From Escherichia phage moskry, in the sequence record MN850651.1: a stretch of DNA of 64,000 nt, one strand, 5' to 3'. Position 1 is the first letter of the stretch. Each line of letters begins with the position of its first letter. Of this stretch, positions 23,252 through 63,592 are shown piece after piece. The notes under the pieces were generated by a model. The model was not told where the DNA came from. It ran no database searches and worked only from the letters and a program-made list of their open reading frames with translations. Position numbers and translations under genes: made by a program.

Positions 23252-23281
23252 TTTGTTTACTCCTCTGTAGTTGATAAGTCT

Positions 23282-23311
23282 ATAGTATCATATACCAAAT
23301 ACGTTGTAAAC
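23282..23311 (-). promoter_or_regulatory. Early sigma70-type promoter for the 89-aa ORF
   Basis: -35 GTTTAC, 18-nt spacer, -10 TACTAT. Confidence 0.55.
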
Positions 23312-25789: not shown

Positions 25790-26041
25790 TTAGAACTTGA
25801 TTTCTATCCAATGACCATCACGCTGGTCGTGATTAATTTTATACTGAAAGCCATTATCACGTAACCACTGCCCGACTTGCTCAGTGATAGTTAAATCATT
25901 CTTTGACGGATAGTATGTAAATTGTGTCTGGCCTTTATCAGCGGCTTTCTCTGCCATCACAGAGAAGTTAGTAATAAAATCACTCAACAAATTAGCTTTA
26001 GTGGCCAGAGCCCTTTCTCTTAATTCCTGTGCAAAACTCAT
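25790..26041 (-). CDS. Hypothetical protein (T4 24.2-like position)
   Basis: 83-aa ORF; position only. Confidence 0.45.
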   Translation of the reverse strand: MSFAQELRERALATKANLLSDFITNFSVMAEKAADKGQTQFTYYPSKNDLTITEQVGQWLRDNGFQYKINHDQRDGHWIEIKF

Positions 26042-26232
26042 TTCTTCACCTTTTTGTTAATCAAACGTTTACGGTATACAACTTTTTCTTTTGCTTTAAA
26101 CTTTGACCGAGCTGTCTCGGCTTTAGTCCATAGTAATCCAACTTCTTTAGGTTGTAAACCGATTTTTTGAGCAATTTCTACGAATGAAAATCCCGCCTCA
26201 TGTAATGTATAAACTTCAACTTCAGCTCTCAT
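26038..26232 (-). CDS. Small helix-turn-helix protein (T4 24.3-like position)
   Basis: ORF-track start is a TTG; ATG at 26232 preferred; HTH-like FSFVEIAQKIGLQPKEV. Confidence 0.4.
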   Translation of the reverse strand: MRAEVEVYTLHEAGFSFVEIAQKIGLQPKEVGLLWTKAETARSKFKAKEKVVYRKRLINKKVKK

Positions 26233-26295
26233 AATCAATCCCGTATTATTTGGTTTGTGCCATTATATACATCAATCTCAAGATGTGTTTTGTAT

Positions 26296-38904: not shown

Positions 38905-38934
38905 ATAGTATCACACATCCATGTGTTTGTAAAC
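38905..38934 (-). promoter_or_regulatory. Early promoter for the alt.-1-like ORF
   Basis: GTTTAC-N18-TACTAT; palindrome ACACATccATGTGT in the spacer. Confidence 0.55.
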
Positions 38935-41021
38935 TATCCTTGGACAAATTTAAACGGAACTGATTCTAAATCCATTAAAGATGCTAACAATTTCAATCCT
39001 TTAGGTGCACTAGTTTTTTCTACAAATGAAGAGAACGATACCGGCTCATCCGATTCGATTTCACCCGTCATAGCAACCACCTCGCCTGTTTCCATGAGAA
39101 CATCACCATCATAAATGACAGCTTCGTCCAACTGGTCCGAGGACATGACTTCAGCTTGAATAAATTTAAGGTTGGATTCTAAACCTGCACCAGTGTCAGA
39201 TGACGCATCTGTAATTTTATTTATTTGCAAGAGAATGCCTCTAGGCAAAATAATTTCTTGCTCATTAGGGTGATTACTCAACTGTCCTGGATAAATCACG
39301 TTAACTTTATGAGCGCCATCAATAGCCCATCCAACGTTAACACGGATTTGTTCTGGCGCATGCATAGCTGTTCTTACTTGACTAGGAGAAATAGTAACAC
39401 CTTCATCATTATTGTCAATGTTAAGCTCTTTGCGAACTTCTTCAGGAGCAAGTCCAAGGGCAACGTTCTCTTTAAACCCACCGAAAATAATAGGAGCTAG
39501 TGAAGTGGAAACATAGTTTCTGAAGTAGAATACCTTATTTTTAACCATTGCTTCGTAAATAGGCATTCTGATAGACTGAGCTCTATATAACGTTAGTCCT
39601 TCAGGTAAACGGTCTCCATTTAAAAACGCTGAATCAAGACCATCGATAGCGCGTTTAACTTCATCTTCATCTGCAACATCGTAAAAATCTGGTTTATAAC
39701 GACCTAACAACATATTATTGATATCGGTATACGCAGAAGAGGCATATTCGCGAATAGCTCGTTTTTCAGCAACAGAGTATTGTTTAGGGTCCCGATTCAT
39801 TGTTATATTAAAGGTGCCTCTAGCCGATTCTCGTGCATAAGTATACATCACATTAGACAAGAACGCTGATTTACGTTGTTTCCAAGTTTTTTCAGATACT
39901 TCAGCTAAAACGTCGTCAGCCAGTTGGAAATTATCTCGTCTAAAATCTTCAAACCATTCGTCTTTAATAGAGTCTGCAATTTCATTTGCAGCTTCAACAA
40001 AAGCAGCTAATGCTTTAACAGATGTTGTTTTTTCAGTTTTAATTTTCTTAGCAAACTTTTCTAAAGTTGGCTTAATAACACTACCATAAGAAACTTCATC
40101 GGCAAATCTAAAGGATTCATCAATACGATTATAAATCTTATTTTCGATATCAGCAACTAAAGTGCCTTTTGCTGTGGACGATGCTTGGGCTAGTACGATT
40201 TCATATGCTTCAGGAAGTAATTCGGCTGTAGCTGGGCCACTAACTTCTTTAGCAGAATTTTCGTATTTCTGGAATAACTCGCCTTCTTGGCGGTCAGCTT
40301 CTAAAGATTGACTTGCTGCAATAGCACGACGAGAAATTTTGGTGCGAGCAATAACCGGCTTATCTTTACGTTTTTCTTCTACCGCGGCAATAGAACCAGC
40401 GATAGCCGTTTCTTTGGTGACCTTTTCACCGGTCTTTTTACTCACATAAACTTCGCCAACATCAGAATCTACTTTCGTGTACAACTCTGTGTTAATGTTA
40501 GGGATGCCTTTAATATCCTCAATGTTGGCATTTTTACGAACCATCATCACATAGGTGTGTTTACCTGTGAATTGATACATTGCCGACAATACTTTAAAAC
40601 GACCACCGGTTTTAGTAGAAACTAAACGAGCAAGAAGAGTTTGAAGTTGTTGTCCGCGTCCTTTCAATTTCTTGGTAGGGAATCGGAACAGAACTGCATC
40701 CATACGAAGAGCTTTAACCTGTTCATATACTGTATTGAAAATGGTGTTGATTGCATCAATAGGAGCAGGACCAAGGCCGTTTTTCAATTCAGCGAGATTA
40801 CCCTTTTCAGACAGACTCATAATAACAACATGAGCGTATTTGTCGCCAAGTTTAACTTGTTTTACAGCGTCGCCTTCGGAAAGGTAAGAGAATAAACGAA
40901 CTACAATATTTGTATCAACATCACCAATTTTCCAGACTTGTGGAACTTTAGCTTTAGGGTTCAAATTGACGACAGGAAGACTGCCTTCAGATTCAAACAC
41001 TTCATTTAATTGTTCAGACAT
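38934..41021 (-). CDS. alt: Alt ADP-ribosyltransferase (packaged; modifies host RNA polymerase)
   Basis: 695 aa (T4 682 aa); C-terminal motifs YRAQ, VFYFRNYVSTSL, QAEV and ending PFKFVQG match T4 Alt. Confidence 0.8.
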   Translation of the reverse strand: MSEQLNEVFESEGSLPVVNLNPKAKVPQVWKIGDVDTNIVVRLFSYLSEGDAVKQVKLGDKYAHVVIMSLSEKGNLAELKNGLGPAPIDAINTIFNTVYEQVKALRMDAVLFRFPTKKLKGRGQQLQTLLARLVSTKTGGRFKVLSAMYQFTGKHTYVMMVRKNANIEDIKGIPNINTELYTKVDSDVGEVYVSKKTGEKVTKETAIAGSIAAVEEKRKDKPVIARTKISRRAIAASQSLEADRQEGELFQKYENSAKEVSGPATAELLPEAYEIVLAQASSTAKGTLVADIENKIYNRIDESFRFADEVSYGSVIKPTLEKFAKKIKTEKTTSVKALAAFVEAANEIADSIKDEWFEDFRRDNFQLADDVLAEVSEKTWKQRKSAFLSNVMYTYARESARGTFNITMNRDPKQYSVAEKRAIREYASSAYTDINNMLLGRYKPDFYDVADEDEVKRAIDGLDSAFLNGDRLPEGLTLYRAQSIRMPIYEAMVKNKVFYFRNYVSTSLAPIIFGGFKENVALGLAPEEVRKELNIDNNDEGVTISPSQVRTAMHAPEQIRVNVGWAIDGAHKVNVIYPGQLSNHPNEQEIILPRGILLQINKITDASSDTGAGLESNLKFIQAEVMSSDQLDEAVIYDGDVLMETGEVVAMTGEIESDEPVSFSSFVEKTSAPKGLKLLASLMDLESVPFKFVQG

Positions 41022-43849: not shown

Positions 43850-44313
43850 AAAGAGTCTCTTAATAGGTTTAACACATCAATAAATTCAGCTTCGGTTAAT
43901 ATTGTATCATCTTTTGTTAGGTGGCTGGCCATGCTGTGCTTCAAAATTTTTCCTTTCGAAGCCTGTAATGCATCACGAAAGCCTTTGTTTTGGATCGCGG
44001 CTTCAAAATATGCATTTGTGTATAATTCTTTCCACGCTTCAGAGTATCTTGAAAATGGAACTCCTAACCAGAAGAGAGTCCCATGGTCCTGAGCTCTTGC
44101 ATAAGACCTTCCGGCTTGCTGTGCGGCCAGTCCTGACAGCCCAAATATACGTCTTTGTTGTTCAACATTTTTCACCTTACATCCTTGGAGAAATCCTTCA
44201 AGACCTCCGAATTGAATACCATCCATAACGAAAGGCCACTGGGCAAAATTACTTAATGCACATGACGGCCATCTAAAATTGCTTCTAATCTCTAACTCAG
44301 ACATCTTTAACAC
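43846..44313 (-). CDS. NADAR (YbiA/DUF1768)-like protein (30.3-like position)
   Basis: 155 aa; ALSNFAQWPFVMDGIQFGGLEGFLQGCKV resembles the YbiA core FSNFAAWP..DG..SEHYFQAQKF. Confidence 0.5.
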   Translation of the reverse strand: MLKMSELEIRSNFRWPSCALSNFAQWPFVMDGIQFGGLEGFLQGCKVKNVEQQRRIFGLSGLAAQQAGRSYARAQDHGTLFWLGVPFSRYSEAWKELYTNAYFEAAIQNKGFRDALQASKGKILKHSMASHLTKDDTILTEAEFIDVLNLLRDSL

Positions 44314-44509
44314 TTATAATTTCAACATCAGCCCAATGTCCATAAGCCGGTAGACGGTCTTTGATAGATAATCCACCGTCATATTTCAGCATTTTAATTG
44401 TTTTAGTATATGGTTCAACTTTTCGGGCCCATGGGCTTACATCAGTCACACGATACGTAACTTCAATCATTTCCATACCAAACAATTTCTGGATTAATTT
44501 ATTCAACAT
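44297..44509 (-). CDS. Hypothetical protein
   Basis: 70-aa ORF in an overlapping early operon. Confidence 0.4.
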   Translation of the reverse strand: MLNKLIQKLFGMEMIEVTYRVTDVSPWARKVEPYTKTIKMLKYDGGLSIKDRLPAYGHWADVEIISVKDV

Positions 44510-44696
44510 GTTTCAACCCTTTAATAGGAGATAACTCTTTACCCATACGTATGTCAGAAGTCCAATCAACCCATTGAACAGCATACGCTTCATTGATAAT
44601 TCCAGCGGCGGTTTTAAATTCAGGGAGAACTTTAAAAATCACCCCAGGAATTCCAACACCTTTTAATTGGACTGTTTGTGCTATTAAAAATTTCAT
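44499..44696 (-). CDS. Hypothetical protein
   Basis: 65-aa ORF; weak early promoter upstream. Confidence 0.4.
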   Translation of the reverse strand: MKFLIAQTVQLKGVGIPGVIFKVLPEFKTAAGIINEAYAVQWVDWTSDIRMGKELSPIKGLKHVE

Positions 44697-44720
44697 ATTT
44701 TTCCACTTACTAAAGAAATC

Positions 44721-44751
44721 GTTATACTCTAATCCGTTCTTGGATGTAAAC
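44721..44751 (-). promoter_or_regulatory. Weak candidate early promoter
   Basis: GTTTAC-N19-TATAAC; non-consensus -10 and long spacer. Confidence 0.3.
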
Positions 44752-45365
44752 TACTTAACGAAATTAATTTCTACCGGATGAACAACAGGTTGAGCAGTGA
44801 TATATTGAGTAATTGCTTTCATGACTAGAGCTTCAGAACCAGGATTTTTCTCAACGAATTCACGTGCTTGGTTATGGGCTTCAAGTTCACTTAGTAAACC
44901 GGAACGTTGGCATCCACGGTCTTGAGTACCCTGTTCAGATAAAAAGACGACTATGTATTTTTCATCGTCATACGGTTTAGACGGTTGAGCAAATGTTCCT
45001 TTACTTCCAAAAGGAGAGTTATGACGCCACATCACGCCGTGAGGAGTTTCAACCTTCGTATATTCGTGCGGGCCATTTTTCTTAGTTTCTTGATGTGGAA
45101 CTTCGTGGACCTTAGGGTTAGGACATTCAATAAAATGCTCATCTAAATCGGTCGAGAATATTAAAGTAAAACAATTACTAAATTTACCAACACCTGCCTG
45201 ATAAATTTTACCTTCAGAAGTTCTAATTTCACAAACTGAGCCAGCATCAGTAACTTCTAAAACTTCAAAAGGCTCGATAAGGTCATATGAGAACATGTTT
45301 TTAAGGCGTGGAGTAATATCCCCATTTTTAAAATTCATTTTATAAAAAGTATTAACTTTAAACAT
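44751..45365 (-). CDS. Hypothetical protein
   Basis: 204 aa; RBS GAGGA; UUCG hairpin immediately upstream. Confidence 0.5.
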   Translation of the reverse strand: MFKVNTFYKMNFKNGDITPRLKNMFSYDLIEPFEVLEVTDAGSVCEIRTSEGKIYQAGVGKFSNCFTLIFSTDLDEHFIECPNPKVHEVPHQETKKNGPHEYTKVETPHGVMWRHNSPFGSKGTFAQPSKPYDDEKYIVVFLSEQGTQDRGCQRSGLLSELEAHNQAREFVEKNPGSEALVMKAITQYITAQPVVHPVEINFVK

Positions 45366-45400
45366 AATTTCCTCAATGGGAGCCGAAGCTCCCAGTTAAA

Positions 45401-45766
45401 TTAGATATCAAATTCGTTAAGAACTACATCAAAGATTGCTTCGAGATGTTCAGGTTTAGCTCGGTTACTCAGGATATGACGAATCCAAGTTTTAACCAGA
45501 AGTTTACGATTAACACCATTCCAGCAAGGATGAGTACCTAAATCACGTTGACGGAAATCATCATCTAATGCAATTTTGAAGTTGGAACCTTCCATTGTGA
45601 TTGAAACCGTGATGCCATTTTCAAATCGCATATAAACATAATTAGGAGTCATATACTGCTCAATTTCACATACTGAACCATTTTTATGCTTCCACAAACA
45701 AACCATATCGATAGAACCAGCGATACCGTTAGAAACATATTTGCGTTCGAAGTTGGTGTAGTTCAT
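45401..45766 (-). CDS. Hypothetical protein
   Basis: 121 aa; RBS GGAG; own early promoter at 45808-45836. Confidence 0.5.
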   Translation of the reverse strand: MNYTNFERKYVSNGIAGSIDMVCLWKHKNGSVCEIEQYMTPNYVYMRFENGITVSITMEGSNFKIALDDDFRQRDLGTHPCWNGVNRKLLVKTWIRHILSNRAKPEHLEAIFDVVLNEFDI

Positions 45767-45807
45767 TTTATTCTCCAGATGTTTAAGTTGTTTGTTGGTA
45801 CAGGTCT

Positions 45808-45836
45808 ATAATAACATAACCTGTACCAAAGTAAAC
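45808..45836 (-). promoter_or_regulatory. Early promoter for ORF 45401-45766
   Basis: GTTTAC-N17-TATTAT; -10 sits in the loop of a 10-bp inverted repeat. Confidence 0.55.
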
Positions 45837-45840
45837 TGTT

Positions 45841-46209
45841 TTATGCAACTTTAATCCAATTGTCTAAATTTAAAACACCTTTGGCTTTCATTTTTTCGAT
45901 CAGGTTATCTGCTGTAATGCGTCCATTTTGATACCATGTAACATCTTCAGAGTAACCAGTTTCTTCGTCAACATATGTTTCTGAACGAATTTTACCGGTA
46001 ATAATAGTTTTTAATTCGTATGTGTCGCCTGTGAAAAAGTTTGCTAACACAATTTTCCAAGAGAAATCATCAGAAGGACCTTCAGGGGTCATACAACCTA
46101 CGAACTCAAATTGCTCTTTGTATAACATCCACTGGAATTCTTTAATTTCGATAGCTTTATAACCGTCATGGTCTTTACATTTGATGTATGAGTTCAGATT
46201 GATTTTCAT
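45841..46209 (-). CDS. Hypothetical protein
   Basis: 122 aa; RBS GGAG; own early promoter at 46251-46280. Confidence 0.5.
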   Translation of the reverse strand: MKINLNSYIKCKDHDGYKAIEIKEFQWMLYKEQFEFVGCMTPEGPSDDFSWKIVLANFFTGDTYELKTIITGKIRSETYVDEETGYSEDVTWYQNGRITADNLIEKMKAKGVLNLDNWIKVA

Positions 46210-46250
46210 TTTATTCTCCGATTGTTTTATTGATTAGGTGGTACAAGTCT

Positions 46251-46280
46251 ATAGTAACACCATCCTACAGGATAGTAAAC
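46251..46280 (-). promoter_or_regulatory. Early promoter for ORF 45841-46209
   Basis: GTTTAC-N18-TACTAT. Confidence 0.55.
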
Positions 46281-46311
46281 ATCTTTTTTAAACTTTTTCT
46301 GCCCTAAACGC

Positions 46312-46335
46312 ACAAAAGGGAGACCGAAGTCTCCC
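46312..46335 (-). terminator. Terminator after the 59-aa basic ORF
   Basis: Hairpin GGGAGACuucgGUCUCCC followed by UUUUGUG on the - strand. Confidence 0.6.
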
Positions 46336-46340
46336 TAAAA

Positions 46341-46520
46341 TTATGCAACAACCTTTCCAAAACGAGAAGCATCATCTCGAAGAACTGCACGTGCTCTGCG
46401 CATGATCTTCTCAACTGTTTGATTAATACGAGAGTTCGACCCACGCTTGTATCCAGCGCGTTTAGAGGTACCATCAACTTTCTTTTCAACTGCTTTCTTT
46501 GCTTTAGCTTGTTTTGCCAT
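46341..46520 (-). CDS. Small basic 59-aa protein, absent from the ORF track
   Basis: Hand translation MAKQAKAKKAVEKKVDGTSKRAGYKRGSNSR...; ends just before terminator hairpin 46318-46335; the ORF-track alternative runs through the hairpin. Confidence 0.4.
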   Translation of the reverse strand: MAKQAKAKKAVEKKVDGTSKRAGYKRGSNSRINQTVEKIMRRARAVLRDDASRFGKVVA

Positions 46521-46677
46521 TATAAATTCTCTTTAAATGAAAATGCAGGACTTATTGACATTGCCTGCGCAAGCCCTCAAGGGGAACATAGGTTTTGGAT
46601 ATTTAACGACAGGATAACCATAAACCTCGTCATCATACCAACCACGACTTAGACAGATAACCTTTTTCTGACGCGTG

Positions 46678-46706
46678 ATAGTATAAAATACATTCAAGAG
46701 GTACAC
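46678..46706 (-). promoter_or_regulatory. Candidate early promoter inside the rIII-30.9 non-coding region
   Basis: GTGTAC-N17-TACTAT, about 155 nt upstream of the 59-aa ORF. Confidence 0.4.
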
Positions 46707-46816
46707 CGTAAAACTGCCGGGGTCTTAAAACTATAATGATTCGCAAATCATTAATCAGACAGTTCGACGGCTCCTCGATTTTCTAGCCGCACTTAAGGTA
46801 GCGAATCACCTAAAAC

Positions 46817-47065
46817 TTATTTAAGGGTGATAACAAAATGACGTACTGCTTTACGAGCTGCAGAAGCCAAAGGCTTAGCATATTTCAGTTCATCTTTTGC
46901 TTCCAGTTCAGAAGCCAAAGCTGCCTGTACCGGGTTCAGATGTTTGAAATATCGCAGGATTTCAAGAGCTTCGGCTTCAACATCAATAGATGCGCCATAG
47001 TTTTCGTGGCCGTTATTCCATGCGTTTCGTTGCAGTTCAAGAGCGTGTTGTAATTGTTTAATCAT
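46817..47065 (-). CDS. rIII: Putative lysis-inhibition accessory protein rIII
   Basis: 82 aa as in T4 rIII; lies between the 30.x island and gene 31. Confidence 0.6.
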   Translation of the reverse strand: MIKQLQHALELQRNAWNNGHENYGASIDVEAEALEILRYFKHLNPVQAALASELEAKDELKYAKPLASAARKAVRHFVITLK

Positions 47066-47181
47066 TTTAAATTCTCAATTCGAGATAATATTTAGTAGCC
47101 ACGTTCGTCTGAATTTCACTTCCTTTCGACAAGTCTCTCAGTTGTAGGCTACCGCTTAGAAGAGTGTTCTCTTCATATAGT

Positions 47182-47189
47182 TATTTATA
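47182..47189 (-). promoter_or_regulatory. Candidate late promoter for rIII
   Basis: Reverse-strand TATAAATA immediately after the gene 31 stop, about 120 nt upstream of rIII. Confidence 0.4.
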
Positions 47190-47522
47190 TCACTTATAAA
47201 GACACGGAATAGCTTTATAGTGGCATGTTACGAATTTCTGTTTAATTTCTTTAGGATGTTTAAGTCCCAAAGCCACAAATGGATGTGGAACATTTCGAAT
47301 TTGTCCAACTGGTAGTGGAGTCAAATCACCGACTTCAACAAAACCTTTAGGAACATCAGGACCTACAGAATGAACTACACATAGTTCAGGAACTTCACCT
47401 TGAACACGTTTACCAATCACAAGTCCTGATTCGGTAACTTCTTCATCACCTGCTTGAGCGGGTTCAGAAACCAGAATAACATATTCACCAACAGCACGAA
47501 TTGGGAGTTGTACTTCAGACAT
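47190..47522 (-). CDS. 31: Co-chaperonin gp31 (GroES analogue)
   Basis: 110 aa; near-identical to T4 gp31; MotA-box middle promoter upstream. Confidence 0.95.
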
Positions 47523-47552
47523 CTTATTTCCTTGTTGTTTGACGATAGATTA

Positions 47553-47577
47553 ATAATACCATACTATTCGTAAAGCA
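47553..47577 (-). promoter_or_regulatory. MotA-dependent middle promoter for gene 31
   Basis: MotA box TGCTTTA, 12-nt spacer, -10 TATTAT; RBS AAGGA. Confidence 0.6.
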
Positions 47578-47579
47578 TA

Positions 47580-47888
47580 TTACATAAGAAGCAAACGTTC
47601 TACTGGAGTACCATCAACCGAAATTACTTTATCAAGGCGGAAAGAACGCCACTGACCTAACTCGGTATCGAATGCTCGAACTGATTCACGAGGTTCAGAA
47701 CGAACTTCTGTTGATGGGTTACTATTTTCATATTTGACTTCAAGTTCATCGCGGGAGGCAAACATCGTACGAACATCACCGTTAGCCTTTTCAAATACAA
47801 CACAATGAACGCCTACAGACAGAATAGTTTTAATACGTTCACGAAGAACCATAGTTTCTCGTTCAGTTAAAATCATATTATTCACCAC
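47580..47888 (-). CDS. Hypothetical protein (31.1-like position)
   Basis: 102-aa ORF upstream of gene 31. Confidence 0.5.
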   Translation of the reverse strand: MVNNMILTERETMVLRERIKTILSVGVHCVVFEKANGDVRTMFASRDELEVKYENSNPSTEVRSEPRESVRAFDTELGQWRSFRLDKVISVDGTPVERLLLM

Positions 47889-48459
47889 AAAAGTTTCGGA
47901 TTTGTTCCCAATTCAGAGAACGAAGATTATTACGAGAGTACTGAATTACTTCAATACCGGCTTGTTTTAGAATGTCGGCCCAATTTTCAGGAGATCTGTC
48001 ATATAATTCCGCGTATACAACCTTTTTAATACCTGACTGCGTAATAGCTTTAGTGCAATCAGGACACGGAGAAAGCGTAGTATATAACGTAGCACCTTCA
48101 ATAGAATTACCTTTACGAGCTGCAAACAAAATTGCGTTCAGTTCCGCATGGATTTCGTTATTAGCAGACCATGCACTATGAGCGGCCCGATGTTCTTTAG
48201 CCAAAACAAAATTATCCACCCGTCCAAATGCTGTAGTGCCTTCTTTATGCCCAGCAACGATGACCGGGCTTGGTTTATTCTTCAACCAACCGTTTTCGGA
48301 TGCATGTTCACAACAGTTAACACCACCGGCCGGGCTACCGTTATACCCAGTAGAAATAATGCGCCCATCTTTTTCAATGACGGCACCAACTTTCCATGAA
48401 CAACATTTTGATTCTTGAGAAATCAGATATGCAATCTGAAGGTATGTGCTAGCTTTCAT
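47878..48459 (-). CDS. cd: dCMP deaminase
   Basis: 193 aa as in T4; zinc-binding deaminase motifs HAELNAI and SPCPDC. Confidence 0.9.
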   Translation of the reverse strand: MKASTYLQIAYLISQESKCCSWKVGAVIEKDGRIISTGYNGSPAGGVNCCEHASENGWLKNKPSPVIVAGHKEGTTAFGRVDNFVLAKEHRAAHSAWSANNEIHAELNAILFAARKGNSIEGATLYTTLSPCPDCTKAITQSGIKKVVYAELYDRSPENWADILKQAGIEVIQYSRNNLRSLNWEQIRNFCGE

Positions 48460-49451
48460 TATTGAACCTTATTAATATAAGTTAACAGCTCTTTAGTTTG
48501 TTCCCAACTGATGCACGCATCGGTAACGGAAACGCCATAGGACATATTATCAGAAATTTTTTGATTTCCTTCATGTAGGAATGATTCTATCATAATTCCT
48601 TTGACCAAATCATTAGCTGCTAAATTTTTACCAATACCAATTTGATTGCTATAATGCCCATCAGCGTTTGCATGGCTACAGTCAACCATTACATAATGAT
48701 TCAGACCTACTGCACTTGCTTTGTTAGAAGCTTCTTGAATATCAGAAGAATGATAGTTCGGGCCGTTGGTCCCGCCACGCAATACGATATGCGTATTCTG
48801 ATTACCTTCAGCTTCAACAATGCCTACAGTACCATCGACGTCCATACCCATATACCGATGAGGCCAGGCGGCACTATACATCGCGTCTGTAGCTACTTTA
48901 ATAGAACCATTGGTTGCGTTCTTGAAGCCTACGCACATCGGTAGACCTGAAGCAATTTCACGATGTGTCTGACTTTCAGTCGTACGGGCGCCAATAGCAA
49001 CCCATGAGAAAATACCAGAAAGATACTTAATCGTGAATGGGTCTAATACTTCAGTTGCTAATGGAAGTCCCATACGTAGAAGTTTACGACACAATGTTCG
49101 TGCAACTATAAGACCGTGGTTCATATCAAAACTTCCGTCAAGATATGGATCATTTACAAGACCTTTCCAACCTACGGTAGTTCGAGGCTTTTCAAAATAA
49201 ACGCGCATCACTAACAGAACATTAGGAAGACGAGTTTGAAGTTCAGCCAAACGTTTGCCGTATTCAACAGCAGCAATAGGGTCATGAATTGAACAAGGAC
49301 CTACAACAATAAGTTTGCGTGGGTCTTCACCGTTCATAATCGAATTAACTTGTTCGCGATGAGAAGCCACTTGTGATGCGTAAGCTTCCGACAAAGGAAT
49401 AATCTCAGCCAGTTCTTTTGGAGAAATAAGTTTTCCGACGACAGGTAACAT
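48459..49451 (-). CDS. 3-deoxy-D-arabino-heptulosonate 7-phosphate (DAHP) synthase, type I-alpha (AroF/AroG/AroH family)
   Basis: 330 aa; motifs GPCSIHD, VMRVYFEKPRTTVGWKGL, GARTTESQTHRE, ILRGG, DCSHAN, ESFLHEGNQ, YGVSVTDACISWE; metal ligands Cys/His/Glu/Asp and PEP-binding Lys/Arg conserved; RBS AAGGA. Confidence 0.85.
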   Translation of the reverse strand: MLPVVGKLISPKELAEIIPLSEAYASQVASHREQVNSIMNGEDPRKLIVVGPCSIHDPIAAVEYGKRLAELQTRLPNVLLVMRVYFEKPRTTVGWKGLVNDPYLDGSFDMNHGLIVARTLCRKLLRMGLPLATEVLDPFTIKYLSGIFSWVAIGARTTESQTHREIASGLPMCVGFKNATNGSIKVATDAMYSAAWPHRYMGMDVDGTVGIVEAEGNQNTHIVLRGGTNGPNYHSSDIQEASNKASAVGLNHYVMVDCSHANADGHYSNQIGIGKNLAANDLVKGIMIESFLHEGNQKISDNMSYGVSVTDACISWEQTKELLTYINKVQ

Positions 49452-49571
49452 AACAATCCTTAGGAGATATAAACAGATTCTGATTCAACAATACCTTTAA
49501 CCGGATTAGACAGGCTAAGTTGGTAGTGCTCAGATTTATGACCATTCTCGATAGTAATGAGATAGCTCTCA

Positions 49572-49808
49572 TTATAGTGTTCCATATACTCGAGTTGCTT
49601 CAACAAGACCATCACTGCCTAATTTAAGATTAGTAATTTGGTCGCCATCTTTAGGATTTACAATTATGAGAAAAGAACGTGGAGATTCTTGAATAACTCG
49701 TAATGTTGCATCCTGGAAACGTTCAGACACTTTATTTATGAGTGCTTGAGCAAATTCTTTTACTTTAATCTGAAATTCGTGCACTGTAATTGGGTTTTCA
49801 CTTAGCAT
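49572..49808 (-). CDS. Hypothetical protein
   Basis: 78 aa; RBS GAGGAA; early promoter at 49838-49867. Confidence 0.5.
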   Translation of the reverse strand: MLSENPITVHEFQIKVKEFAQALINKVSERFQDATLRVIQESPRSFLIIVNPKDGDQITNLKLGSDGLVEATRVYGTL

Positions 49809-49837
49809 TCTGTTTTCCTCATTGTGTTGGTAGAGTT

Positions 49838-49867
49838 ATAGTATCACAACTCTACCATGTTGTAAAC
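49838..49867 (-). promoter_or_regulatory. Early promoter for ORF 49572-49808 and downstream DAHP synthase/cd
   Basis: GTTTAC-N18-TACTAT; -10 in the loop of a 9-bp inverted repeat. Confidence 0.55.
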
Positions 49868-49869
49868 CA

Positions 49870-50145
49870 TTAAATTGCTTTGCATTCAATTTTTTGTGTA
49901 CCGAAATTGATATCACATTGGATAACTAAATCGCCGTCAAGATCAAATACCACGATGACGTGTGCAGACCCAGGGAGAAGAGTAATAGCAATAGAATCTA
50001 CTTGGTTTGGGAGCAAAGCATTGAGTACATGAGTTACTTGAGCATGAACTCTGAGTTCGGCTGCATTATCAAGCACTTCAAACATATTATTAGCAATAAT
50101 CTGACTGAAGACTACCTTTACAATTTCAGAATAAGTTGGGAACAT
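49870..50145 (-). CDS. Hypothetical protein
   Basis: 91-aa ORF in the operon downstream of pseT. Confidence 0.45.
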   Translation of the reverse strand: MFPTYSEIVKVVFSQIIANNMFEVLDNAAELRVHAQVTHVLNALLPNQVDSIAITLLPGSAHVIVVFDLDGDLVIQCDINFGTQKIECKAI

Positions 50146-50152
50146 AATTACC

Positions 50153-50377
50153 TCAGTGCACAGTATTTACTTTAACTCGAACAACAAATCGCTCGGTTGG
50201 TTCACCTACAGGAACAAACTCTACATGATATTCGCCTTTGTAACGAGTATTCAGATCATTACGAATTCCTGCGAGTTTGTTGATTAATGTAGGACTCATA
50301 TTAAGTCCCACTAGTTTACGAAGCATTTTGTATGCTTCATCTTCGATTTCATGATGTTTATCGTACATAGTTTTCAT
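50153..50377 (-). CDS. Hypothetical protein
   Basis: 74-aa ORF. Confidence 0.45.
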   Translation of the reverse strand: MKTMYDKHHEIEDEAYKMLRKLVGLNMSPTLINKLAGIRNDLNTRYKGEYHVEFVPVGEPTERFVVRVKVNTVH

Positions 50378-50548
50378 TTAACCATTCAATTGCCTGGTCG
50401 ACGTTATCAAATATACCACCGTCCAACCATTCTTCATGTTCATAGTCCAGCACATCAATACCGAACCGTCCATTTACTAAAGGCCATACTACAAACAAAT
50501 ATTCTTTATGCTGTTCGATGACCTCAATCACTTCATATAATCGTTTCA

Positions 50549-50549
<1 letters not shown>
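50358..50549 (-). CDS. Hypothetical protein
   Basis: 63-aa ORF coupled to pseT. Confidence 0.4.
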
Positions 50550-51635
<1,086 letters not shown>

Positions 51636-51636
<1 letters not shown>

Positions 51637-51935
51637 TATTTGATTCCTAAGAAAGCTTCAAGAATACGAATGTTGAGTTCGCGCCGGTCTTTATTAATTT
51701 CAGCAACGTTTTTATTAATTGACGTACTTCTAACGTTTGAAGAAATAAATTTAATCATATGACTTTTGAGTTGTTGCAAATCCAACCCTTTTTCTTTAGC
51801 AGCTTTACGAAGAGCTTTACCTGCTTCATCTAGTGCTTTTGCCGCATCTTTATCATAATTGCCAAGTGACATTCCGCGGCAGATATCAATATACTCATCA
51901 GACCGTTTGATGTAATTCTCTAGTAATGTTTTCAT
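51636..51935 (-). CDS. Hypothetical protein
   Basis: 99 aa; RBS GAGGAA; early promoter at 51965-51993. Confidence 0.45.
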
Positions 51936-51964
51936 TTAGATTTCCTCAATTATCCATAGGAGCA

Positions 51965-51993
51965 TTATACTCTGCTCCCGAGAGTTTGTAAAC
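51965..51993 (-). promoter_or_regulatory. Early promoter for ORF 51636-51935
   Basis: GTTTAC-N17-TATAAT; flanking inverted repeat GGAGCA/TGCTCC. Confidence 0.55.
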
Positions 51994-52217
51994 TATTTTA
52001 CTAAAGATTCAATATACTCATGAAGAGCTTTAGTCGCTACTGCCCACTTATTCTGATATTCATTTTTCAGATTAGCACGAGACTGAACTAACAAGCGGTC
52101 ATTAGTCGGAGGCAAAGATTCTAATCGTTGAATCTGGCGTCCATAAATCATAGCCGCCATTTCAGATTCATAGATAAGCCCTTTAATGTATTCATGCTGT
52201 TCTTTAGTCATTGGCAT
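51993..52217 (-). CDS. Hypothetical protein
   Basis: 74-aa ORF. Confidence 0.45.
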   Translation of the reverse strand: MPMTKEQHEYIKGLIYESEMAAMIYGRQIQRLESLPPTNDRLLVQSRANLKNEYQNKWAVATKALHEYIESLVK

Positions 52218-53368: not shown

Positions 53369-53398
53369 ATAGTATCACCATCCTTGGTGTTTGTAAAC
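53369..53398 (-). promoter_or_regulatory. Early promoter for alc
   Basis: GTTTAC-N18-TACTAT about 30 nt upstream of the alc ATG. Confidence 0.55.
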
Positions 53399-54551: not shown

Positions 54552-54581
54552 ATTGTACCACAATCCTTGTGGTATGTAAAC
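54552..54581 (-). promoter_or_regulatory. Early promoter for rnlA
   Basis: GTTTAC-N18-TACAAT; inverted repeat CCACAAtccTTGTGG in the spacer. Confidence 0.5.
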
Positions 54582-54991
54582 TACTTTTTCTTATGTTGGA
54601 TATTCCAAGGCGGGTTGAACTTTTTGATAAAAAGTGGTTCTTCAAGGTCCATTGTTGCGATGGTCATTGAACCAAGTTCGTTGGTGACTGAAAGGTCAAA
54701 ACATTGGCGGGCCCAGAATTCAACCTTTTTGCCTTGCATTAAGGCATCCAAAATCATAAGTGATTTTCTTGAATCTGAAGTCTGGTCTTTTCGATTTATG
54801 GCTGTTCGATAATAGTTAATGCGTTTCTTTAAATTCTTGGTTTTACCAATATACACAAGTTCGTCATCTATAGCAATAGCGTATATGACATTTTTCTTAT
54901 TAGGGACATCAACTGTTTTAATTGTTGCATCTTCTAATAGCTCCAATTCTGTATATTTAATAAAGGAATATTCGGCGGCAATATCTTTCAT
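54581..54991 (-). CDS. denA: Endonuclease II
   Basis: 136 aa as in T4 EndoII; GIY-YIG motif NVIYAIAIDDELVYIGKTKNLKKR. Confidence 0.75.
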   Translation of the reverse strand: MKDIAAEYSFIKYTELELLEDATIKTVDVPNKKNVIYAIAIDDELVYIGKTKNLKKRINYYRTAINRKDQTSDSRKSLMILDALMQGKKVEFWARQCFDLSVTNELGSMTIATMDLEEPLFIKKFNPPWNIQHKKK

Positions 54992-56196: not shown

Positions 56197-56251
56197 TATA
56201 TTTTCTCACTTAGTTATTAACTCATCCATGAGTAAATTATAATCAAAAGTC

Positions 56252-58507
56252 TTAAAGCTTACAAGCAGAACAATCTTCAGCTTTAGGTGTTTCTAATTCA
56301 TAGTCATCTGTACCTGACCCATCACGAGTGTTATGATAGTAGAGGTTTTTTCCGCCAAAGTACCAGAAGTAAAGCAGATCGTCAAGCATTACAGACATTG
56401 GCACTTTGCCTTTCTCAAAGACTGAAGGGTCGTAGTATGTATTAGCAGAAGCAGATTGGCACACCCATTTTAACATGATAACAACTTGTGTCAGATAAGG
56501 CTTATTACCTTTCTTAGCGAGTTTCCACGCATAGTCATAAAGACCCATGTTGTGTTCAATATTAGGAACTACTTGACGGAAATTACCTTCTTTAGATTCT
56601 TTAATACTTACTGGGCCACGAGGTGGTTCAATACCATTTGTGCTATTTGAGACCTGGCTGCTTGATTCGCATGGCATGAGAGCACTGAGTGTACTGTTAC
56701 GAATCCCGTGTTCTTTAAGTTCGGCTCGTAGTTCTTCCCAATCACATACATAGTTTGGGGCTGCGATTTGGTCAATTTTTTTATTGTACCAGTCGATAGG
56801 TAATTCGCCTCGAGACCATTTAGTGTCTGAATAATACTCGCAACGTCCTTTTTCTTTGGCGAGTTTGATTGATGCTTTGATAAGGCCATATTGCAATCTC
56901 TCAAACAATTCATGAGTCAAATCGTTAGCGTCTTCATATGAAGCGAAGTTAGAAGCTAACCATGCAGCATAGTTCGTAACACCAACACCAAGATTACGAC
57001 GCTTTTTGGCTTTTAAAGCTTCTGGAACCGGATAATCTTGATAGTCTAACAGGTTATCAAGTGCACGTACTTGTACTTCGGCAAGTTCATTAATTTTATC
57101 TTGGTCTTGCCAATCAAATTTATCTAACACGAATGCAGATAATGTGCATAAACCAATTTCAGCATCAGGACCATTCACATCATTAGTTGGAATAGCGATT
57201 TCACAACATAAGTTACTCTGACGAATTGGAGCTTTTTCACGAATAAACGGAGTGTAGTTATTCGTGTTATCAACAAACTGTGGATAAATTCGAGCAGTAC
57301 CAGAGCGTTCAGTCATGAACAATTCAAAGAGTTCTAGTGCTTTGATTCTTTTCTTTCTGATTGTTGGGTCTTTTTCAGCTTTCTCATAAAGCTCACGGAA
57401 TTTATCTTGATCTTCAAAGAACGAGTAATATAGTTCGCCTGACATTTCGTGAGGGCTAAATAAAGTAATATAATCATTTTTGCCAAGGCGTTCCATCATA
57501 AGGTCATTAATCTGAATTCCGTAGTCCATATGACGAATACGGTTTTCATCCACACCTTTGTTATTTTTCAGAACTAATAGGTTCTCTACTTCTAAGTGCC
57601 ACATCGGATAATACGCTGTAGCAGCACCACCACGAATACCACCTTGAGAACAAGATTTTACTGCAGTTTGGAAATGTTTCCAGAATGGAATAACACCCGT
57701 ATGTCGAACTTCACCCATACCGATCTTAGAACCTTCTGCACGAAGCATACCAACGTTGATACCAATACCAGCTCGTTTAGAAATATATTCAATAATCGAT
57801 GCTGAAGTTTTGTTAATAGATTTTAACGAATCACCGGCTTCAATAACTACACAACTAGAGAACTGGCGAGTTGGAGTACGAGCACCTGCCATAATTGGGG
57901 TTGGCAATGAAACTTGATGAGTAGAAACGGCATCATAAAAACGAATAATATGTTTCAAACGGTCATGAGTTTCGTTTTGGTGTAAGGCCATGCCAATAGC
58001 CATGATAGCAAACTGGGGAGTTTCATAAATCTTCCCAGTTGTTTTATCTTTAACTAGATATTTTTCTTTAAGCTGCATAGCACCAGCATAAGTCAGGTCA
58101 AAGTCTCGTTCATGTTTAATCTGTGAATCGAGATAAATGATTTCTTCTGCTGAATATTGAGACAACAGCTCAGGGTCATATTTGCCTTCATTAACACAAT
58201 AAGAAATATGGTCGATAAAAGCAGGCGGTTCAAACTGCCCATATACATCTTTACGAAGTGCAAACATTAGCCCTTTGGCGGCGACATACTGATAATCAGG
58301 TTCTTCGACAGAAATCGAGTTAGCTGCAACTTTAATACAAATCTTCTGGATATCTTTGGTGCTCATCCCGTCGACAAGATGGGTCTTAATTTCTTCGTAC
58401 AATTCATATGGGTCAATTTGTGTTCCTTCACATTGCCAGGTCAGAACTTGGATAATTTTCTGTGCATCAAAATTTTGGGATACGCCACTGCTCTTAGTTA
58501 CTTGCAT
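56252..58507 (-). CDS. nrdA: Ribonucleotide reductase large subunit
   Basis: 751 aa; class Ia R1; C-terminal CSACKL-type tail. Confidence 0.95.
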   Translation of the reverse strand: MQVTKSSGVSQNFDAQKIIQVLTWQCEGTQIDPYELYEEIKTHLVDGMSTKDIQKICIKVAANSISVEEPDYQYVAAKGLMFALRKDVYGQFEPPAFIDHISYCVNEGKYDPELLSQYSAEEIIYLDSQIKHERDFDLTYAGAMQLKEKYLVKDKTTGKIYETPQFAIMAIGMALHQNETHDRLKHIIRFYDAVSTHQVSLPTPIMAGARTPTRQFSSCVVIEAGDSLKSINKTSASIIEYISKRAGIGINVGMLRAEGSKIGMGEVRHTGVIPFWKHFQTAVKSCSQGGIRGGAATAYYPMWHLEVENLLVLKNNKGVDENRIRHMDYGIQINDLMMERLGKNDYITLFSPHEMSGELYYSFFEDQDKFRELYEKAEKDPTIRKKRIKALELFELFMTERSGTARIYPQFVDNTNNYTPFIREKAPIRQSNLCCEIAIPTNDVNGPDAEIGLCTLSAFVLDKFDWQDQDKINELAEVQVRALDNLLDYQDYPVPEALKAKKRRNLGVGVTNYAAWLASNFASYEDANDLTHELFERLQYGLIKASIKLAKEKGRCEYYSDTKWSRGELPIDWYNKKIDQIAAPNYVCDWEELRAELKEHGIRNSTLSALMPCESSSQVSNSTNGIEPPRGPVSIKESKEGNFRQVVPNIEHNMGLYDYAWKLAKKGNKPYLTQVVIMLKWVCQSASANTYYDPSVFEKGKVPMSVMLDDLLYFWYFGGKNLYYHNTRDGSGTDDYELETPKAEDCSACKL

Positions 58508-58803
58508 ATGTCCTCTATATTAAATTCGTCTTTAAAAAGTTTATTAACCACTAGAGCTATTATATCACCATGACAGGCTTTTGGTTTACATGTGCATCCC
58601 AGACGCATACCACGTAAAGGTTCTAGATGAGCTTTTGTGATTTCTCCACACTTAATTCTCTTAATAAAATCCTTTTTGAAAAGCTCAATAGCTTCTTCTC
58701 GGGAAGAGGCATCCTTGCCTACATAATTTCCCCAGAATGTGCCACGATGAATATTAACATCAAAATCGGATTTATATTTATTCACAACGCGGCACATTTT
58801 CAT
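58498..58803 (-). CDS. Hypothetical Cys-rich protein (nrdA.x-like position)
   Basis: 101 aa with GCTCKPKACHGD; overlaps the nrdA start. Confidence 0.45.
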   Translation of the reverse strand: MKMCRVVNKYKSDFDVNIHRGTFWGNYVGKDASSREEAIELFKKDFIKRIKCGEITKAHLEPLRGMRLGCTCKPKACHGDIIALVVNKLFKDEFNIEDICK

Positions 58804-59057
58804 TACATGTCCTCTGCAATAATTTCTTCGTATTCTTTAGGAGTCAAGACCGTGATATTAAAATAAACCAACGGTTCTTTTTCTATACCGAATCCACCAC
58901 AGAATTCACGATATTCATAAATTCGTTCATGTGAATAACAAATGAATCGTTCACCTTTAACTGTGATTTCACTATTTGGTGAAGGGATATCCAGTTCACT
59001 TGGATTTTTCATTTCAAAAATTGTGGTGCCATATGAATTAATAAAACGTAAAATCAT
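58803..59057 (-). CDS. Hypothetical protein (nrdA.x-like position)
   Basis: 84-aa ORF between td and nrdA. Confidence 0.45.
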   Translation of the reverse strand: MILRFINSYGTTIFEMKNPSELDIPSPNSEITVKGERFICYSHERIYEYREFCGGFGIEKEPLVYFNITVLTPKEYEEIIAEDM

Positions 59058-60754: not shown

Positions 60755-60788
60755 TTTATTCTCCTCTTCACTTTTATTTTATAGGGCT

Positions 60789-60818
60789 ACTATAACATAG
60801 CCCTATCTTGTTATAAAC
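60789..60818 (-). promoter_or_regulatory. Early promoter for the frd.1-like ORF
   Basis: GTTTAT-N18-TATAGT; 9-bp inverted repeat flanks the -10. Confidence 0.45.
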
Positions 60819-61210
60819 TACTTTTTAAAAGTTTTTTGCAAAAGTTTGATGATTTCGTCGACGTTAGTTTCATCCACGATACAATGGATTTTTGTTACAC
60901 CTAAAGTTATACCTTCGTTAGTAGGTTGAGGCTTTACTAAATCTACCTCAGTAAAGTATTTGAACTCGTCAGGATAAATCTCAAAATAAGTTTCAATTTC
61001 ACCACCGGCAGAACATACAGTACCATCTTCCATAGTTACACTTACTACGTTTGACGTATCGCTATCATAATCAGGTTCCATTCCGTTTACAACAAAACTA
61101 GGCCCGTGGAGTTCAATCAATTTTAACATCTTAGCGTTATTGTGTGGTGCTTCTTGAACAAAGTCGTCTTTAAATAAAGGGTTAATGATATAAGATTTTC
61201 CGATTTCCAT
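60818..61210 (-). CDS. Hypothetical protein (frd.2-like position)
   Basis: Start moved to MEIGKSY with RBS GAGGAA just after the upstream stop; ORF-track extension overlaps the upstream gene. Confidence 0.45.
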   Translation of the reverse strand: MEIGKSYIINPLFKDDFVQEAPHNNAKMLKLIELHGPSFVVNGMEPDYDSDTSNVVSVTMEDGTVCSAGGEIETYFEIYPDEFKYFTEVDLVKPQPTNEGITLGVTKIHCIVDETNVDEIIKLLQKTFKK

Positions 61211-61472: not shown

Positions 61473-61502
61473 TTTATTTTCCTCTCATTTGTCGATAAGT
61501 CT

Positions 61503-61531
61503 ATAGTATCATGTTTAAAGGAAAAGTAAAC
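61503..61531 (-). promoter_or_regulatory. Early promoter for ORF 61221-61472
   Basis: GTTTAC-N17-TACTAT; 19-nt core identical to the promoter at 23273-23291. Confidence 0.55.
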
Positions 61532-62603: not shown

Positions 62604-63257
62604 TTAATACTTACATGATTTTATTGTTTCTATGAACAATTTCTTAGCAGCATTTACATCGATTTGAAGTATTTTTCGATATGCCTTTAATTTGGTAGAA
62701 TAATTTTGCCAGACTAAATTGTCAGTGAGTTCGTCGTGCTTATCTATAATATTCAAAAATGAGTCCAACAATAAGAAAGTCTCAAATGAAATTATATTGC
62801 TTTGTAGCAATTTGAATATGTAGCTCGACTGAACGTTGTTATTATAATCAAATATCTCTTGAAGCGCACTAACTTCAACTTTCTTACTGAAATAGTAGAT
62901 GTTACGTACGTCTTCAGCAAACGTCTCTTTAGCTTGTTTGAGACGTCCAATATATTCCCTATAGAAAACTAATGCATCAGCGTCTGATATCTCACCAATC
63001 CATGCGTCTTGGTTAGCAACTAAGTTGCTTATGAATATCAAGGTGAGTTCCTTCAATTTATATTTCTCTGCTAGTTTTTCAAAGAAATATTTATCTCGGC
63101 GTTTTTGATACGCATTATCCGAAACACGCATGCACCAGTTATATTTGATTACGTCATACCGACCATTAAAATGTTGTTTGCACATCAAGTATAGTTTGTA
63201 TACCGATTTTCCGTTAATATAACGTTCTCCATCAGGAGGCATGCGTATTTTAATCAT
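62604..63257 (-). CDS. 59: Helicase loader gp59
   Basis: 217 aa as in T4; near-identical N-terminus. Confidence 0.9.
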   Translation of the reverse strand: MIKIRMPPDGERYINGKSVYKLYLMCKQHFNGRYDVIKYNWCMRVSDNAYQKRRDKYFFEKLAEKYKLKELTLIFISNLVANQDAWIGEISDADALVFYREYIGRLKQAKETFAEDVRNIYYFSKKVEVSALQEIFDYNNNVQSSYIFKLLQSNIISFETFLLLDSFLNIIDKHDELTDNLVWQNYSTKLKAYRKILQIDVNAAKKLFIETIKSCKY

Positions 63258-63592
63258 AATAAGAAATCTAACGTATTAGTTTTTTCACCACGAGCAACTG
63301 ACGGGCGAAGCATGTTTTCGTCAATTGCTTCGCTTGTAATTTTTTCAACAATTCCTGTAGGAATAAATTTAGCAAATTGTGTTTCTGGAATAGAATTTTC
63401 TTCCAAGAAAGCAGTTGTTGCTTCTAAATAAGACATACCAAATTGTTCAACCATAGATTCGATAATGAATCCGTTTTCTTGACGGTCAAGCAATTTAGCG
63501 ATATCATCTTTATCATGTTTTACTGCTAATTCTTGTTCAGATAAACCGGCCTCATCAACCGGTTTAATATCACTTAGTGAAAACTGTGTCAT
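63254..63592 (-). CDS. 33: Late transcription co-activator gp33
   Basis: 112 aa as in T4; acidic; position between dsbA and 59. Confidence 0.7.
   Translation of the reverse strand: MTQFSLSDIKPVDEAGLSEQELAVKHDKDDIAKLLDRQENGFIIESMVEQFGMSYLEATTAFLEENSIPETQFAKFIPTGIVEKITSEAIDENMLRPSVARGEKTNTLDFLL

Follow-up and report, generated by a model that had tools for sequence, protein, structure and literature searches.

The early region of Escherichia phage moskry raises the question of whether the short inverted repeats found around the -10 boxes of several of its early promoters are there by anything other than chance and, if so, at which level, DNA or RNA, they act. An earlier reading of 64,000 nucleotides of this genome (sequence record MN850651.1; the whole stretch is referred to below as the window), here called the original prediction, had pointed out such repeats at several minus-strand promoters, with the -10 hexamer in the loop or next to the repeat, and had favoured a structural role (an RNA 3'-end hairpin of the upstream gene, a cruciform or a pause signal) over a single operator protein. 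All of the inverted repeats that it quoted are present at the coordinates it gave, each following a GTTTAC or GTTTAT -35 hexamer on the minus strand. Our analysis confirms that inverted repeats at the early promoters are real and non-random, and judging by their sequences the sites very probably are cassettes of the PeSL (promoter-early stem-loop) type, an architecture already described in the literature that the original prediction had not recognised.

We catalogued 12 early-promoter-like sites in the window (P1-P12, Table 1). From P1 to P11 they follow a common pattern, consisting of an A-rich run, GTTTAC-N17-19-TAnnnT (with GTTTAT once as the -35 hexamer) and then a Shine-Dalgarno site and ATG; GTTTAC followed 17-19 nt later by TAnnnT is the consensus of T4-type early promoters. 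These eleven are of the sigma-70 type, intergenic, co-oriented with the flanking open reading frames (ORFs) and preceded by an A/T-rich region, with a GAGG or GGAG motif and an ATG 20-35 nt past the -10 box. The record closest to the window is that of Escherichia phage AV110 (98.7% identity in a megablast of 44000-52000, which matched 912 phage records), and the close relatives are classified as Mosigvirus, that is, as RB69-like T4-type phages.

Chance was assessed by shuffling the spacer of each promoter 1000 times while keeping the rest of the sequence fixed, with the longest perfect stem between the spacer and the downstream sequence as the statistic. Across the 12 promoters of the window the mean longest stem is 6.5 bp, compared with 4.63 ± 0.26 bp after shuffling, and 0/1000 shuffles reach the observed value. 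Stems of at least 8 bp occur at 4/12 promoters (0.13 expected) and stems of at least 9 bp at three (0.025 expected). Among random genomic positions of matching geometry, 1.5% reach 8 bp or more. In the whole genome of AV110, the mean over 46 early promoters is 6.22 bp against 4.62 ± 0.14 bp for shuffled spacers, and 14 of the 46 reach at least 8 bp, where 0.45 would be expected and 300 shuffles gave a maximum of 4. T4 has such stems at 8/30 candidate early promoters (0.44 expected). A scan of IMG/VR with the pattern GTTTAC-N18-TATAGTAG returned mostly unrelated random matches, which lack the repeat and serve as a negative control, and added about ten further family members.

The most conspicuous repeats are those of P2, P5, P6 and P8, which share one layout: a 5' arm within the spacer, a loop that holds the -10 box, and a 3' arm beginning at or just past the last base of that box. 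Their stems comprise 6-11 bp with 3-5 G-C pairs, the loops measure 8-15 nt when only Watson-Crick pairs are counted and 4-6 nt if G.U pairs are allowed, and RNA folding yields -11 to -18 kcal/mol with z-scores between -3.1 and -5.8. The stem of P8 has 11 bp (p=0.001; -17.9 kcal/mol, z -4.6), and its arms are the same in T4 Pe129918 and 15 relatives, in contrast to a loop and two flanks that are variable. At P6 the stem has 10 bp (p<0.001), or 13 bp counting G.U pairs, and folds at -17.2 kcal/mol in the sense direction compared with -12.7 kcal/mol in the antisense direction (z -5.8). P2, a member of what we refer to as the TATAGT family, has 9 bp (p=0.001; -15.4 kcal/mol, z -5.4). The stem of P5 has only 6 bp (p=0.07 taken alone; -11.4 kcal/mol, z -3.1), but a paralogue at AV110 143327 carries AGAGCA/TGCTCT, a compensatory change relative to GGAGCA/TGCTCC that supports the P5 stem despite the weak p value. 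For P2, P3, P6 and P8 the shuffle tests rule out a chance origin.

Table 1 Early promoters, inverted repeats and related features of the window, with arm pairs and sites from AV110 and T4
Feature	Position	Strand	Details
P1	61477..61580	-	-35 at 61531-61526; -10 TACTAT at 61508-61503; 19-mer at 61512-61494
Canonical terminator at P1, upstream of the -35	61580-61563	-	GGGAGACTTCGGTCTCCC then TTTT
P2, early promoter	60781..60818	-	-35 GTTTAT at 60818-60813; -10 TATAGT at 60794-60789; 5' arm ATAGGGCTA at 60806-60798; 3' arm TAGCCCTAT at 60789-60781
P3, early promoter of rnlA	54552..54581	-	palindrome TACCACAA-gga-TTGTGGTA at 54574-54556; 3' arm enters -10 TACAAT at 54557-54552
P4, early promoter of alc	53369..53398	-	palindrome CACCA-agga-TGGTG at 53389-53376
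P5, early promoter	51959..51993	-	-35 at 51993-51988; -10 TATAAT at 51969-51964; 5' arm GGAGCA at 51978-51973; 3' arm TGCTCC at 51964-51959
P6, early promoter between cd.3-like and cd.2-like genes	49828..49867	-	-35 at 49867-49862; -10 TACTAT at 49843-49838; 5' arm TGGTAGAGTT at 49857-49848; 3' arm AACTCTACCA at 49837-49828
P7, early promoter	46280	-	imperfect stem only
P8, early promoter of 30.7-like gene	45795..45836	-	-35 GTTTAC at 45836-45831; -10 TATTAT at 45813-45808; 5' arm TTGGTACAGGT at 45829-45819; 13-nt loop holding the -10; 3' arm ACCTGTACCAA at 45805-45795
P9, early promoter	44751	-	no significant stem
P10, early promoter overlapping the alt stop codon	38905..38934	-	palindrome ACACATGGATGTGT at 38927-38914
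P11, early promoter	23273..23311	-	-35 at 23311-23306; 19-mer ATGATACTATAGACTTATC at 23291-23273
P12	26159	-	perfect consensus GTTTAC-N18-TACTAT within small ORF 26038-26238, upstream of ORF 25790-26041; no inverted repeat
TAG/-35 fusions	60818-60820, 54581-54583, 51993-51995, 44751-44753, 38934-38936	-
TATAGT family arm pairs (including P2)			TAGGACTA/TAGTCCTA; TAGGGCTA/TAGCCCTA; GGTAGGACT/AGTCCTACC; T4 CAAGACTA/TAGTCTTG; T4 CAAGATTA/TAATCTTG
Class B arm examples			TTCTCCTCTAGTTGT/ACAACTAGAGGAGAA; T4 ipII TCTCCTGTAG/CTACAGGAGA
Class B sites, AV110 (examples)	132506, 92028, 136192, 128853, 78994
Class B sites, T4 (examples)	65413, 62797, 53943, 130310

Within the window the repeats do differ in sequence from site to site, as originally stated, but this does not hold genome-wide, where arm families recur, the pair TAGGACTA-N8-TAGTCCTA about nine times in AV110. 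In an alignment of 21 distinct members of the TATAGT family, three of them without a 5' arm, 84.9% of the cells are paired, compared with 78.4 ± 1.1% when shuffled (0/500 shuffles reach the observed value) and 23-59% in slid registers, and both sides have changed in 8/12 pairs, which only 4/500 shuffles attain. A similar turnover is seen at the P6 locus, where the arms are GGTAGAGTT/AACTCTACC in the window and GGTAGAG/CTCTACC in the T4 orthologue Pe133331, while other relatives have GGTAGGACT/AGTCCTACC or a CACCA..GGTG spacer palindrome; the inverted repeat is thus retained at the orthologous locus although its sequence and class turn over. In these comparisons it is the pairing that is conserved, not the arm sequence, and the pairing is evidently under selection. 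A RefSeq note on T4 describes 133300-133313, the 14-nt P6-orthologous loop between the arms of Pe133295, as the inverted complement of the sequence reported earlier.

The types of mismatch bear on which strand carries the structure. Among interior mismatches of the TATAGT family that are flanked by Watson-Crick pairs, G.T on the sense strand occurs in at least seven lineages and A.C in none, with one indel-shifted row set aside; a strict count of one-mismatch stems over all T4-like loci gives 3 G.T and 1 A.C, too few for a test. G.T variants of the P6 stem are present in AV110 and WFK, and at 4/4 of the main window sites the sense RNA folds more stably than the antisense RNA. For stems that straddle the -10 box, these observations favour, without proving, the sense-strand RNA as the relevant molecule.

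The stems fall into two classes according to what the spacer pairs with. Class A comprises stems that straddle the -10 box, with a 3' arm whose end falls between -2 and +6 relative to the start site predicted from the consensus of T4/RB69 promoters; 10 AV110 promoters have such a stem of 7 bp or more. In the four main cases of the window the 3' arm spans about -7 to +2 and stops 20-29 nt ahead of the ATG, leaving the Shine-Dalgarno site uncovered. In class B, found at eight AV110 promoters with stems of at least 7 bp, the spacer opens with TTCTCC... and pairs over 7-15 bp, starting after GTTTAC, with the Shine-Dalgarno region of the downstream gene, by which the ribosome-binding site would be sequestered in read-through RNA alone; within the window this complementarity is weak and confined to P1. 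No AV110 stem of 7 bp or more is placed entirely past the predicted start. At six AV110 promoters a canonical GC/tetraloop terminator stands just upstream instead.

The repeats also sit where related genomes diverge. BLAST similarity blocks shared with T4 and IMG/VR relatives end exactly at the -35 of P8 (45836), at 44696 (adjoining P9), at 49808/49814 (P6), at about 52000 (P5) and at 60765/60777 (P2). The 30.7 block downstream of P8 has 86% DNA identity to T4, gene 30.8 upstream of it 37% protein identity, and the conserved P8 core is abutted by three different upstream contexts. At P1, the core of about 33 nt that comprises spacer, -10 box and discriminator (window 61494-61531, AV110 ~49400-49438) has been replaced between identical flanks, which suggests gene conversion between paralogous promoters. 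Early-promoter cassettes thus mark what appear in these alignments to be points of exchange of gene modules between T4-type genomes.

This arrangement is that of the PeSL cassettes which Arbiol et al. (2010, PMC2839356) described in phages RB49 and phi1. There an A/T-rich region is combined with an early promoter resembling those of sigma-70 and with a stem-loop, and the module closes with the translation signals (Shine-Dalgarno site and ATG) of the gene that follows. The stem-loops were assigned to five positional subclasses, the commonest lying between -35 and -10 or overlapping the -10, and they contain G-T pairs; one RB49 stem-loop lowered the expression of a downstream lacZ as strongly as rrnB T1, and PeSLs are associated with indels and mini-circles, with a mini-circle crossover mapped inside a PeSL loop (PMC2839356). 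Comeau et al. (2014, PMC4122927) later added T4/PST and KVP40/nt-1. The window sites share the intergenic A/T-rich region, the sigma-70-type early promoter, the placement of the stem-loop, the Shine-Dalgarno site with ATG and the G-T pairs, as well as the location at insertion, replacement and divergence junctions between related genomes. By position, P2, P5, P6 and P8 have the stem-loop over the -10, P3, P4 and P10 between -35 and -10 (P4 and P10 weakly), and P1 upstream of the -35. Since all sequence-level features of a PeSL are present, the window sites can be regarded as probable members of this known kind in a genus new to it, Mosigvirus (RB69-like) genomes having been analysed in neither PeSL paper. 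They differ in that their stems are not of the polyG/polyC type of RB49, and in that the T4/PST stem-loops were placed just upstream of the promoter (PMC4122927), although T4 itself, as found here, has -10-straddling stems as well. Two reviews from 2010 and the RB69 promoter survey of Nolan 2006 make no mention of inverted repeats in T4 early promoters.

A second precedent concerns the consequences for the RNA. In T4, the genes e, soc, 49 and I-TevI each have a hairpin that hides the Shine-Dalgarno site and has a promoter inside it (reviewed in PMC3014915). As in the present case, where the start is deduced from the consensus, the 5' arm lies upstream of the start of the internal promoter, so that only transcripts initiated upstream fold; class B in AV110 and T4, and weakly P1 in the window, shares this geometry. 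The known hairpins, however, keep late genes from being translated early and have late promoters inside them, whereas the internal promoters here are early. In addition, the 3' arm of the known hairpins covers the Shine-Dalgarno site, which the 3' arms at the four main sites of the window do not. REP-type intercistronic stabiliser hairpins of Escherichia coli operons, which act as barriers to 3' exonucleases, offer a further parallel: both kinds of hairpin lack a U-tract and sit on a cistron's 3' side, and such hairpins could define stable decay intermediates, while the overlap with a promoter has no REP counterpart.

Taken together, the geometry suggests a mechanism at the level of RNA. The 5' arm occupies the spacer, which is functionally tolerant, and the -10 box is thereby forced into the loop. 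Because the 3' arm extends to roughly the predicted start, the promoter's own transcript would be without the hairpin, and only RNA read through from an upstream promoter would hold both arms and fold. If folding is restricted to read-through RNA, the likeliest role is a post-transcriptional or attenuating insulation of neighbouring early cassettes. A stable hairpin would close the RNA of the upstream cistron and distinguish read-through from promoter-proximal RNA, and insulation could come about by attenuating the upstream RNA, by guarding its 3' end or by tagging it for processing; class B would insulate by hiding the Shine-Dalgarno site, and the cassette as a whole may double as a recombination junction. 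The start position, the formation of the hairpin in vivo and its effect on the RNA are all things that we infer. Taken by itself, we would give the insulating role at the RNA level about an even chance, and we regard PeSL-type cassettes combined with RNA-level insulation as a reading somewhat better than even. Of the three structural options in the original prediction, the 3'-end hairpin in the RNA of the upstream gene, here as read-through RNA, is the one that fits best, and it matches the published PeSL proposal.

Several observations weigh against this reading. The hairpins are not followed by a U-tract, with 1-4 T in the next 10 nt compared with 6-8 at the canonical terminators of the window. 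A strong embedded stem accompanies 0/5 promoters that have an upstream canonical terminator and 14/41 that do not, a difference in the expected direction that is not significant, and any such stem at all is found in only about half of the early promoters. The members of the TATAGT family are paralogues, and gene conversion between promoters could carry arm pairs jointly, so that the covariation counts are not independent events. Over the 46 AV110 promoter regions, sense and antisense folding energies do not differ significantly (p=0.33), and the class B stems, between spacer and Shine-Dalgarno region, lean to the antisense strand. Given the null result for whole regions, the strand claim rests only on the class that straddles the -10 and on the types of mismatch. 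The literature searched contained no transcript-end data for this phage, T4 or RB69.

Action of the repeats as DNA, with a cruciform or hairpin modulating promoter opening or serving as a target of structure-specific nucleases or recombination that drive cassette exchange, is in our view unlikely. The coincidence of homology breakpoints with promoters would fit such a role, as would the crossover inside a PeSL loop (PMC2839356), the RefSeq note on the formerly inverted T4 loop and the strand test over whole regions; homologous exchange, however, needs only the direct repeats of the promoters and no inverted repeat. Moreover, the occurrence of G.T without A.C interior mismatches implies that the complementary strand would bear the A.C mismatches, unlike in a two-strand cruciform. 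Short stems (6-11 bp) around long loops (8-15 nt) would in addition extrude poorly as cruciforms, and the cruciform contemplated in the original prediction is accordingly disfavoured.

One could also ask whether the hairpins are genuine Rho-independent terminators of the upstream early genes, set atop the next promoter to save space, but we consider this improbable. Like such terminators, they are intergenic, stable hairpins straight after a stop codon in a co-oriented gene array; terminator-like activity was measured for one RB49 stem-loop (PMC2839356), and none of the five promoters that have a canonical terminator upstream has a strong embedded stem. Yet the U-tract is missing at all four main sites, which makes classical intrinsic termination unlikely, and a terminator scan of the window flagged none of the four stems as terminator-like on the minus strand. 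Compared with Rho-independent terminators the window stems also appear less GC-rich and, on Watson-Crick pairs, their loops longer, though the loops come down to 4-6 nt when G.U pairs are added; the phage's own canonical terminators combine a GC stem, a UUCG-type loop and a T-run. For stems without U-tracts, the published label of terminator is therefore probably incomplete.

The idea that the palindromes are operators of a dimeric phage DNA-binding protein, aiding for instance the shut-off of early promoters, draws on the recurrence of arm families (the TAGGACTA family, and CACCA-N4-TGGTG at several promoters) and on the fact that the shut-off mechanism is described as incompletely understood (PMC3014915), but it is very unlikely because the arms co-vary. 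No single half-site is conserved across the promoters: the arms differ between families, and within a family both sides change while keeping their complementarity, which alters both half-sites, and where a single side has changed the result is always G.T. A repeat is absent from many early promoters, and among the spacer palindromes the symmetry centre shifts relative to the -10. The original preference for a structural role over a single operator protein is in keeping with this, the arms co-varying with pairing kept, the interior mismatches being G.T and the sense RNA folding better. That the repeats reflect accidental complementarity within A/T-rich promoters, or a side effect of two motifs conserved independently of each other, is hardly credible as a general account, for although this fits the weakest sites, P10 and P4, and the 3' arms coincide with conserved elements (the GT-rich extended -10 and the discriminator ..CCTATC..), spacer shuffles fail to reproduce the stems in the window, AV110 and T4, random genomic sites seldom reach 8 bp, unrelated database matches to the promoter pattern lack the repeat, and covariation is present.

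With explicit statistics and covariation, the analysis bears out that T4 itself and RB69-like phages likewise have early regions built from PeSL-type cassettes. The published picture is refined in that pairing is conserved over sequence, the sense strand is indicated by the G.T bias, the 3' arm reaches to the predicted start, and U-tracts are lacking. A separation of read-through from promoter-proximal RNA by the hairpins, if it occurs, would help to explain insulation and shut-off in a dense array of early cassettes whose strong promoters stand in tandem, and the hairpins could be useful parts for phage engineering. One could further speculate, tentatively and with rather more doubt, that promoter-embedded stems form a genome-wide system of the T-even type that sorts transcripts by their origin. 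Since every hairpin has its 5' arm ahead of the local start, read-through RNA would be folded, beside the 5' untranslated region in class A or over the Shine-Dalgarno site in class B, and the promoter's own mRNA would stay unstructured. If true, early-promoter shut-off would be linked to a silencing, through translation or stability, of early genes on later read-through transcripts.

At P2, P3, P5, P9 and P10 the TAG stop codon of the upstream ORF gives its G to the -35 hexamer (TAGTTTAC), and a ribosome that terminates at this codon would lie over the 5' arm of the promoter-embedded stem. On the speculative reading above, whether the stem folds would then hinge as well on the upstream gene being translated.

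The remaining sites are of a more modest kind. P3, P4 and P10 have a short palindrome within the spacer, which at P3 comprises 8 bp (p=0.001; -8.3 kcal/mol, z -2.8) and was graded moderate. The palindrome of P4, missed by the original prediction, is weak (5 bp, p=0.22; -5.5 kcal/mol, z -2.1), and its family also sits at the P6-orthologous locus of relatives. That of P10 is no better than chance by spacer shuffle and folding (p=0.43; -3.7 kcal/mol, z -0.4). The test named at the outset as capable of refuting the original prediction, namely that such repeats be no more frequent at promoters than in shuffled sequence, thus came out as enrichment at the strong sites, and only this palindrome, at 38914-38927, lies at chance level. 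The spacer palindromes, P10 and P4 among them, share a CACCA-NGGAN-GGTG motif, the 3' arm of which is part of the conserved GT-rich extended -10 region.

The identical 19-mer that had been noted at P1 and P11 is present, but is promoter consensus and not a separate feature: the extended -10 element, the -10 hexamer and the discriminator conserved among the early promoters of this phage make up its sequence. It may have been spread by gene conversion; conversion between promoters, as suggested by the replaced core of P1, would also account for its identity at the two sites. At P1, the spacer segment TTTTCCT (61525-61519) is complementary to the Shine-Dalgarno region AGGAAAA (61483-61477), with a folding energy of -8.2 kcal/mol and z -2.5. 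The upstream neighbour of P11 is on the opposite strand, and this promoter has no significant inverted repeat (4 bp, p=0.99; z +0.4); nor did folding give significance to P9 or to the imperfect stem of P7.

According to the AV110 annotation, the early cluster extends over 38-64 kb, all on the minus strand, in the order alt-30-30.x-rIII-31-cd-pseT-alc-rnlA-denA-nrdB-nrdA-td-frd-32-59. Middle-promoter-like sites are found on the minus strand at 47579, 25789 and 56251, each with a MotA box GCTTTA 11-13 nt ahead of TATAAT or TATTAT; an imperfect repeat, TTACTCATGGATGAGTTA, comes after the one at 56251 but lacks significance by folding.

The window and AV110 further differ by several insertions. 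The td gene of AV110 has a 1017-bp insertion with a homing endonuclease ORF that is absent at window 59370/59372, where td is uninterrupted. The window likewise lacks, at 63254-63258, an insertion of about 670 bp that AV110 carries between its gene 59-like and gene 33-like ORFs and that holds a homing endonuclease gene. Conversely, about 300 bp of the window (58510-58809, ORF 58498-58803) have no counterpart in AV110, which has about 90 bp there.

Between the 30.9-like gene and rIII, finally, lies a stretch of about 300 nt (46521-46816) with no ORF of more than 57 codons; Rfam gave zero family matches across the whole window, this stretch included. Its identity to many Tequatrovirus genomes is 90-95%, exceeding the conservation of the adjacent coding DNA.

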